DNA of 64,000 nucleotides from assembly GCF_003334785.1 (NCBI RefSeq), contig NZ_QOWV01000007.1, one strand, 5' to 3'. The notes beneath the pieces were generated by a model. The model saw only the letters and a program-made list of their open reading frames with translations. It was not told the origin of the DNA and did no database searches. The DNA is from Escherichia coli. GTDB taxonomy: Bacteria > Pseudomonadota > Gammaproteobacteria > Enterobacterales > Enterobacteriaceae. Positions within the stretch are counted from its first letter, which is position 1. Every line of letters starts with the position of its first letter. Position numbers and translations under genes: made by a program. Positions 11,103 through 11,130 of this stretch are shown here, in pieces.

Positions 11103-11130
11103 TCAGATTCGTTTTATAGCCTGAAGTTCC
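11103..11130 (-). promoter_or_regulatory. Sigma-E-type promoter of degP
   Basis: The minus strand reads GGAACTT-(16 nt)-TCTGA about 50-70 nt upstream of the degP ATG, matching the sigma-E -35/-10 consensus. Confidence 0.7.

Follow-up and report, generated by a model that had tools for sequence, protein, structure and literature searches.

The question raised by this locus is whether a sigma-E-like sequence just upstream of degP is the envelope-stress promoter of that gene, and whether it is the only input to degP transcription. We addressed it in a single stretch of 64,000 nucleotides, referred to here as the window, in which the DNA around the motif is Escherichia coli chromosome. The gene driven by the candidate promoter lies at 9633 to 11057 on the minus strand and encodes a 474-aa protein identified as DegP by the NCBIfam equivalog NF008189 (935 bits versus a cut-off of 720). 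This gene is followed downstream by cdaR, and the upstream open reading frame, at 11187 to 12704 on the same strand, encodes the dGTPase Dgt.

Within the 129-nt dgt-degP intergenic region, the minus strand carries a -35 element, GGAACTT, at 11130 to 11124, followed by a 16-nt spacer, CAGGCTATAAAACGAA, at 11123 to 11108 with a conserved TATAAA inside it (11118 to 11113) and by a -10 element, TCTGA, at 11107 to 11103, so that the GGAACTT-N16-TCTGA arrangement named in the original prediction is present exactly. The same prediction called the promoter canonical, a description that holds for the -35 element, which matches the consensus at 7 of 7 positions, and for the 16-nt spacer, but not for the -10 element, where TCTGA shares 3 of 5 positions (the T, the C, and the final A) with TCAAA, the consensus now in use. 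The 30 nt 5' of the -35 element (11131 to 11160, minus strand) form an A/T-rich, UP-element-like region with 73% A+T versus 49% for the whole window. A second sigma-E-like -35 sequence, GAAACTT at 11143 to 11137, was dismissed as a promoter because it has no TCNNA 15 to 17 nt downstream.

By itself, the motif does not rise beyond chance in 64 kb. The strict 12-base pattern GGAACTT-N16-TCTGA occurs once in the window against an expectation of 0.01, a test that is partly circular because TCTGA is an older consensus drawn partly from the degP promoter itself and also from rpoH P3. The independent sigma-E consensus of Rhodius et al. 2006 is GGAACTT-N16-TCAAA (PMC1312014), from which the degP site departs at two positions, both in the -10 element. 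Sites with two or fewer mismatches to this consensus number 4 in the window against 5.3 expected, and the looser pattern GAACTT-N15-17-TCNNA is found once against 1.37 expected. Since the loose and two-mismatch searches are at or below chance, motif statistics alone cannot carry the claim, and the case is carried instead by position, conservation, and published experiments. The degP motif stands out because, among the four near-consensus matches in the window, it is the only one that is intergenic and outside a long open reading frame, because a mapped transcription start site (TSS) is found at the appropriate distance from it, and because it has a phylogenetic footprint.

From the last dgt codons to the degP start, the window is 100% identical to the degPp region of E. 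coli K-12 MG1655; there are no differences, the TSS and CpxR boxes are the same, and the window carries the K-12-type allele, with CAG at the start of the spacer. Through this alignment, a window position w converts to a K-12 coordinate as 180884 + 11057 - w. We took TSS positions from the 5'-triphosphate-enriched RACE sequencing of K-12 by Cho et al. 2014 (PMC3923258, Table S4), in which a start at 180844 on the plus strand was detected in exponential phase and on glutamine. The upstream sequence listed for it ends ...TCTGAAGAACA, also given as ...GGAACTTCAGGCTATAAAACGAATCTGAAGAACA. This start corresponds to A11097 on the minus strand of the window, following TCTGA by 5 nt and GGAACTT by 26 nt. 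The expectation that the motif would sit at a suitable distance from the degP start is thereby borne out, with the -10 element ending 46 nt before the ATG at 11057 and the mapped start giving a 40-nt leader. The sigma-24 assignment given for this region in the same source comes from a database and not from that paper's own ChIP (PMC3923258).

The position of A11097 also agrees with what is known of sigma-E promoter architecture, for which the preferred geometry is a spacer of 16 nt, a discriminator of 5 or 6 nt, and 26 or 27 nt from the -35 element to +1 (PMC1312014). Against the ranges that we applied (spacer of 15 to 19 nt, discriminator of 5 or 6 nt, 25 to 28 nt from the -35 element to +1, and a purine at +1), the degP values are 16, 5, 26, and A. 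The site thus shares with the consensus of Rhodius et al. 2006 the full -35 element, the spacer, the discriminator, the distance to +1, the purine start, and an A/T-rich upstream region, and differs from it in having TCTGA where the consensus -10 element is TCAAA. A/T-rich UP sequences 5' of sigma-E -35 elements have been reported (PMC1312014, PMC3326320), and the A+T content of the upstream 30 nt fits that description. The start-site mapping that was proposed as a check of the prediction had therefore already been published for an identical sequence, with a result in the preferred geometry.

The second proposed check, induction on rpoE overexpression, is likewise in the literature for the identical sequence. 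In MG1655 overexpressing rpoE, degP tops the table of sigma-E-modulated genes, at 56.3-fold, with 63.9-fold by qRT-PCR (PMC2731931). Its promoter is one of a set of 60 dependent on sigma-E for which strength has been determined in vitro as well as in vivo (PMC3326320), the gene is part of the conserved sigma-E core regulon (PMC1312014), and degP/htrA was the second gene for which transcription by sigma-E was demonstrated (reviewed in PMC8103513). For direct binding by sigma-E we rely on published work: a co-crystal of sigma-E domain 4 on GGAACTT explains the need for the AA and the C of the -35 element (PMC1540707), and sigma-E ChIP-seq in Salmonella detected a peak, containing the consensus motif, at htrA, where binding was under the 2-fold threshold in cells grown in vitro (PMC4577112).

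The reading of this site as the sigma-E promoter of degP is thus supported by the mapped TSS, by the response to rpoE, and by the conservation described below, and we regard it as nearly certain that the site is degPp (htrA P3), the sigma-E (RpoE)-dependent promoter of degP. This promoter is already known, its essentials having been published for this exact sequence; the degP/htrA promoter is a standard envelope-stress reporter, and its confirmation adds nothing new. What the window gains is a calibrated positive control, comprising a promoter, a mapped TSS, an RNA thermometer, and CpxR boxes, and an instance in which a real alternative-sigma promoter could be located to the base from sequence alone.

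To describe conservation, we used the DegP protein to search a single genome of each species, found 80 loci spread over about 30 genera of Enterobacteriaceae, located the degP start codon at each locus, and aligned the 200 nt upstream. One locus was dropped for having too little upstream sequence, and the remaining 79 together with the window gave 78 distinct sequences. The -35 element is GGAACTT in 60 of these, GGAACTA in 12, and TGAACTT in 6, such that the GAACT core is invariant. The -10 element is TCTGA in 66, TCTTA in 7, and TCTCA in 3 (TCTNA in 76/78) and is shifted in the 2 remaining sequences, from Buttiauxella, while the spacer is 16 nt long in 75/78 and 17 nt in 3/78. The twelve motif columns have a sequence-weighted mean of 1.78 bits, compared with 1.24 bits in the remaining intergenic columns (Mann-Whitney p = 7e-4), and the least conserved positions are the 14 nt upstream of the -35 element (0.75 bits) and the discriminator (0.87 bits). 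Judged from the alignment, this pattern has the form of a footprint and not of uniform conservation. The conserved block does extend beyond the two sigma-E elements, and part of the conservation therefore reflects other constraints; the TATAAA inside the spacer (11118 to 11113), for example, has a mean weighted identity of 0.90.

Within E. coli, a 351-nt stretch over the region has a match in 5,425 of 5,426 complete genomes, annotated as dgt | degP. Among these 5,425 matches, three come from records that carry a plasmid label, which, like the one complete genome with no match, probably reflects mislabelled replicons or a deletion. Across a 66-nt promoter segment, 1,384 of the 5,425 genomes carry the allele of the window, 4,024 carry that of UTI89, and 17 carry another. 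The two main alleles differ only at two adjacent spacer bases (11121 and 11122), leaving both promoter elements untouched: the first three bases of the spacer are CAG in the window, K-12, and BL21 type and CGC in the majority of E. coli and of the other genera. Since CGC is found in 4,024 E. coli genomes and in most other Enterobacteriaceae, the K-12 allele looks derived.

The sigma-E promoter is not the sole input to degP but one part of a composite region that also includes CpxR boxes, a second TSS, and an RNA thermometer. Two boxes of the GTAAA-N5-GTAAA-like form can be recognized upstream of the promoter by exact match to known sites listed in PMC9600279 (Table S1), and their binding by CpxR is taken from the literature. 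The box named degP1, GTAAAGACGAACAAT, is at 11162 to 11176 on the minus strand, spanning -79 to -65 relative to the sigma-E start, and the box named degP2, GTAAATTACCGTCAG, is at 11312 to 11326 on the same strand, within the 3' part of dgt. Together with the A/T tract at 11161 to 11145, degP1 constitutes the most conserved intergenic block, with a mean of about 1.67 bits. This block, TGTAAAGA...CAATAAATTTTTAC (11145 to 11176, minus strand), is almost invariant over the approximately 30 genera, its conservation being at least equal to that of the sigma-E elements, and because GTAAA occurs on one strand and GTAAAAA on the opposite one, the block can be read as an imperfect inverted pair.

The extent of this conservation, together with the chance expectations given above, is what might favor regarding GGAACTT-N16-TCTGA as a chance match within a region conserved for binding of CpxR or another regulator and for the leader RNA, not for recognition by sigma-E. 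Near-consensus matches are indeed expected by chance in 64 kb, and conservation in the CpxR-box block and in the leader roughly equals that of the sigma-E motif. Such an account would not, however, explain why conservation has a separate peak at each element and falls off between and around the two while the spacing stays fixed at 16, nor why a mapped start falls at the predicted distance, and it is contradicted by the published dependence of the identical sequence on sigma-E, both in vivo and in vitro. We consider a chance match scarcely credible. A different possibility arises within the motif itself, where a second published TSS, at K-12 180837, corresponds to G11104 on the minus strand and gives a 47-nt leader; its 28 reads all come from stationary phase, and the table also records sigma-38 ChIP binding in the region (PMC3923258, Table S4). 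G11104 falls inside the sigma-E -10 element, 7 nt upstream of the sigma-E start, so it is not a product of the sigma-E promoter, and sigma-E is not the sole polymerase form used at degP. The CTATAAA of the sigma-E spacer, which contains the conserved TATAAA, has its end 8 nt ahead of G11104 and could plausibly serve as the -10 element of a sigma-S or sigma-70 form. A scan of 10900 to 11400 with the sigma-70 consensus returned no promoter-like or terminator-like site, ruling out a canonical sigma-70 promoter as the explanation of the region, and an acceptable -35 element was not found 16 to 18 nt upstream of TATAAA.

A nested second promoter coexisting with the sigma-E promoter is likely, although in our estimation it is close to an even call, and it would be minor beside the sigma-E promoter. 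We advance more tentatively, leaning slightly against it, the fuller proposal that the sigma-E form and a sigma-S or sigma-70 form share this DNA (with CTATAAA as the -10 element and G11104 as the start of the latter) and compete for it, the choice between them setting a 40-nt or a 47-nt leader, in an arrangement conserved across Enterobacteriaceae. If this were true, only the -10 assignment and the competition between polymerases would be new, the 47-nt start having been published already for Salmonella and in the E. coli table. Much further along the same line is the view that the nested promoter, possibly aided by CpxR, is the main driver of degP and the sigma-E motif is secondary. It can draw on the published stationary-phase start and the listed sigma-38 binding, on the conservation of TATAAA and its position relative to G11104, and on the low, constitutive transcript reported for the corresponding 47-nt-leader start of Salmonella htrA (PMC5602114). 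Against this stand the lack of a sigma-70-like site in 10900 to 11400 and of an acceptable -35 element for TATAAA, the low read counts, and the 56-fold induction by rpoE together with the invariance of the GAACT core, which mark the sigma-E elements as the main, selected feature. A further point in favor of an additional driver is that Cpx induction of degP has been reported to be only partly sigma-E dependent. On balance, we judge a primary role for the nested promoter to be very improbable, and sigma-E-dependent transcription from A11097 remains the reading that we adopt.

A close counterpart of this region is htrA of Salmonella enterica, which has in common with it the GGAACTT-N16-TCTGA motif, leaders of 40 and 47 nt, and a fourU thermometer, and which differs by a few substitutions in the spacer and discriminator. 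Three promoters have been described there: htrAp3, which is sigma-E dependent and gives the 40-nt leader, htrAp2, which gives the 47-nt leader, and htrAp1, within dgt; the first study observed the 40-nt leader under stress only and the 47-nt leader at a low, constitutive level (PMC5602114). The far-upstream Salmonella start inside dgt has no counterpart in the E. coli TSS table (PMC3923258, Table S4).

The 40-nt 5' untranslated region (11058 to 11097, minus strand) contains, by Rfam match and predicted fold, an HtrA fourU-type RNA thermometer hairpin. Rfam model RF02700 (HtrA 5' UTR thermometer) matches 11052 to 11097 on the minus strand over its full length, at 77 bits versus a gathering score of 52, and the match begins exactly at the mapped TSS, 11097. 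In the predicted fold, UUUUG pairs with the CGAGA of the Shine-Dalgarno region, leaving one C bulged and enclosing a loop of 5 nt, the same hairpin architecture that was shown by SHAPE for Salmonella (PMC5602114). The folding energy of the leader is -3 kcal/mol, with a z of +0.94, no more stable than shuffled sequences; this value is uninformative alone because thermometers are weak by design, and the relevant evidence is therefore the Rfam match. By that match the E. coli degP leader belongs to the HtrA thermometer family, which was characterised in Salmonella, and it would be expected to respond to temperature, its function in E. coli being a point for which we depend on the literature.

These elements can be assembled into a mechanism in which unfolded outer-membrane proteins would trigger cleavage of RseA, the anti-sigma factor, and thereby free sigma-E, a release that is established knowledge. 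Domain 4 of sigma-E would then engage GGAACTT at 11130 to 11124 while domain 2 would open the DNA at TCTGA, 16 nt downstream, and transcription would start at A11097. The resulting 40-nt leader would form a weak fourU hairpin that covers the ribosome-binding site, and translation should rise with temperature. Phosphorylated CpxR, acting at the upstream GTAAA boxes (11176 to 11162 and 11326 to 11312), would supply a second envelope-stress input.

The distance between promoter and leader is not the same in all Enterobacteriaceae. In many genera, an insertion of 7 nt separates the -10 element from the conserved leader ACACAGCAA (compare 11098 to 11102 in the window), among them loci from Klebsiella (L070, L077, and L078), Kluyvera (L044), and Franconibacter (L012). 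Given this insertion, these genera would have to have a sigma-E start and a leader length unlike those in E. coli and Salmonella, with the thermometer lying 7 nt further from the 5' end.

Elsewhere in the window, two small RNAs are matched at Rfam gathering level on the minus strand, CssrA (RF02798) at 1147 to 1256 with 136 bits and t44 (RF00127) at 2095 to 2181 with 83.5 bits, both of which are to be expected in the chromosome near rpsB in E. coli and Shigella.
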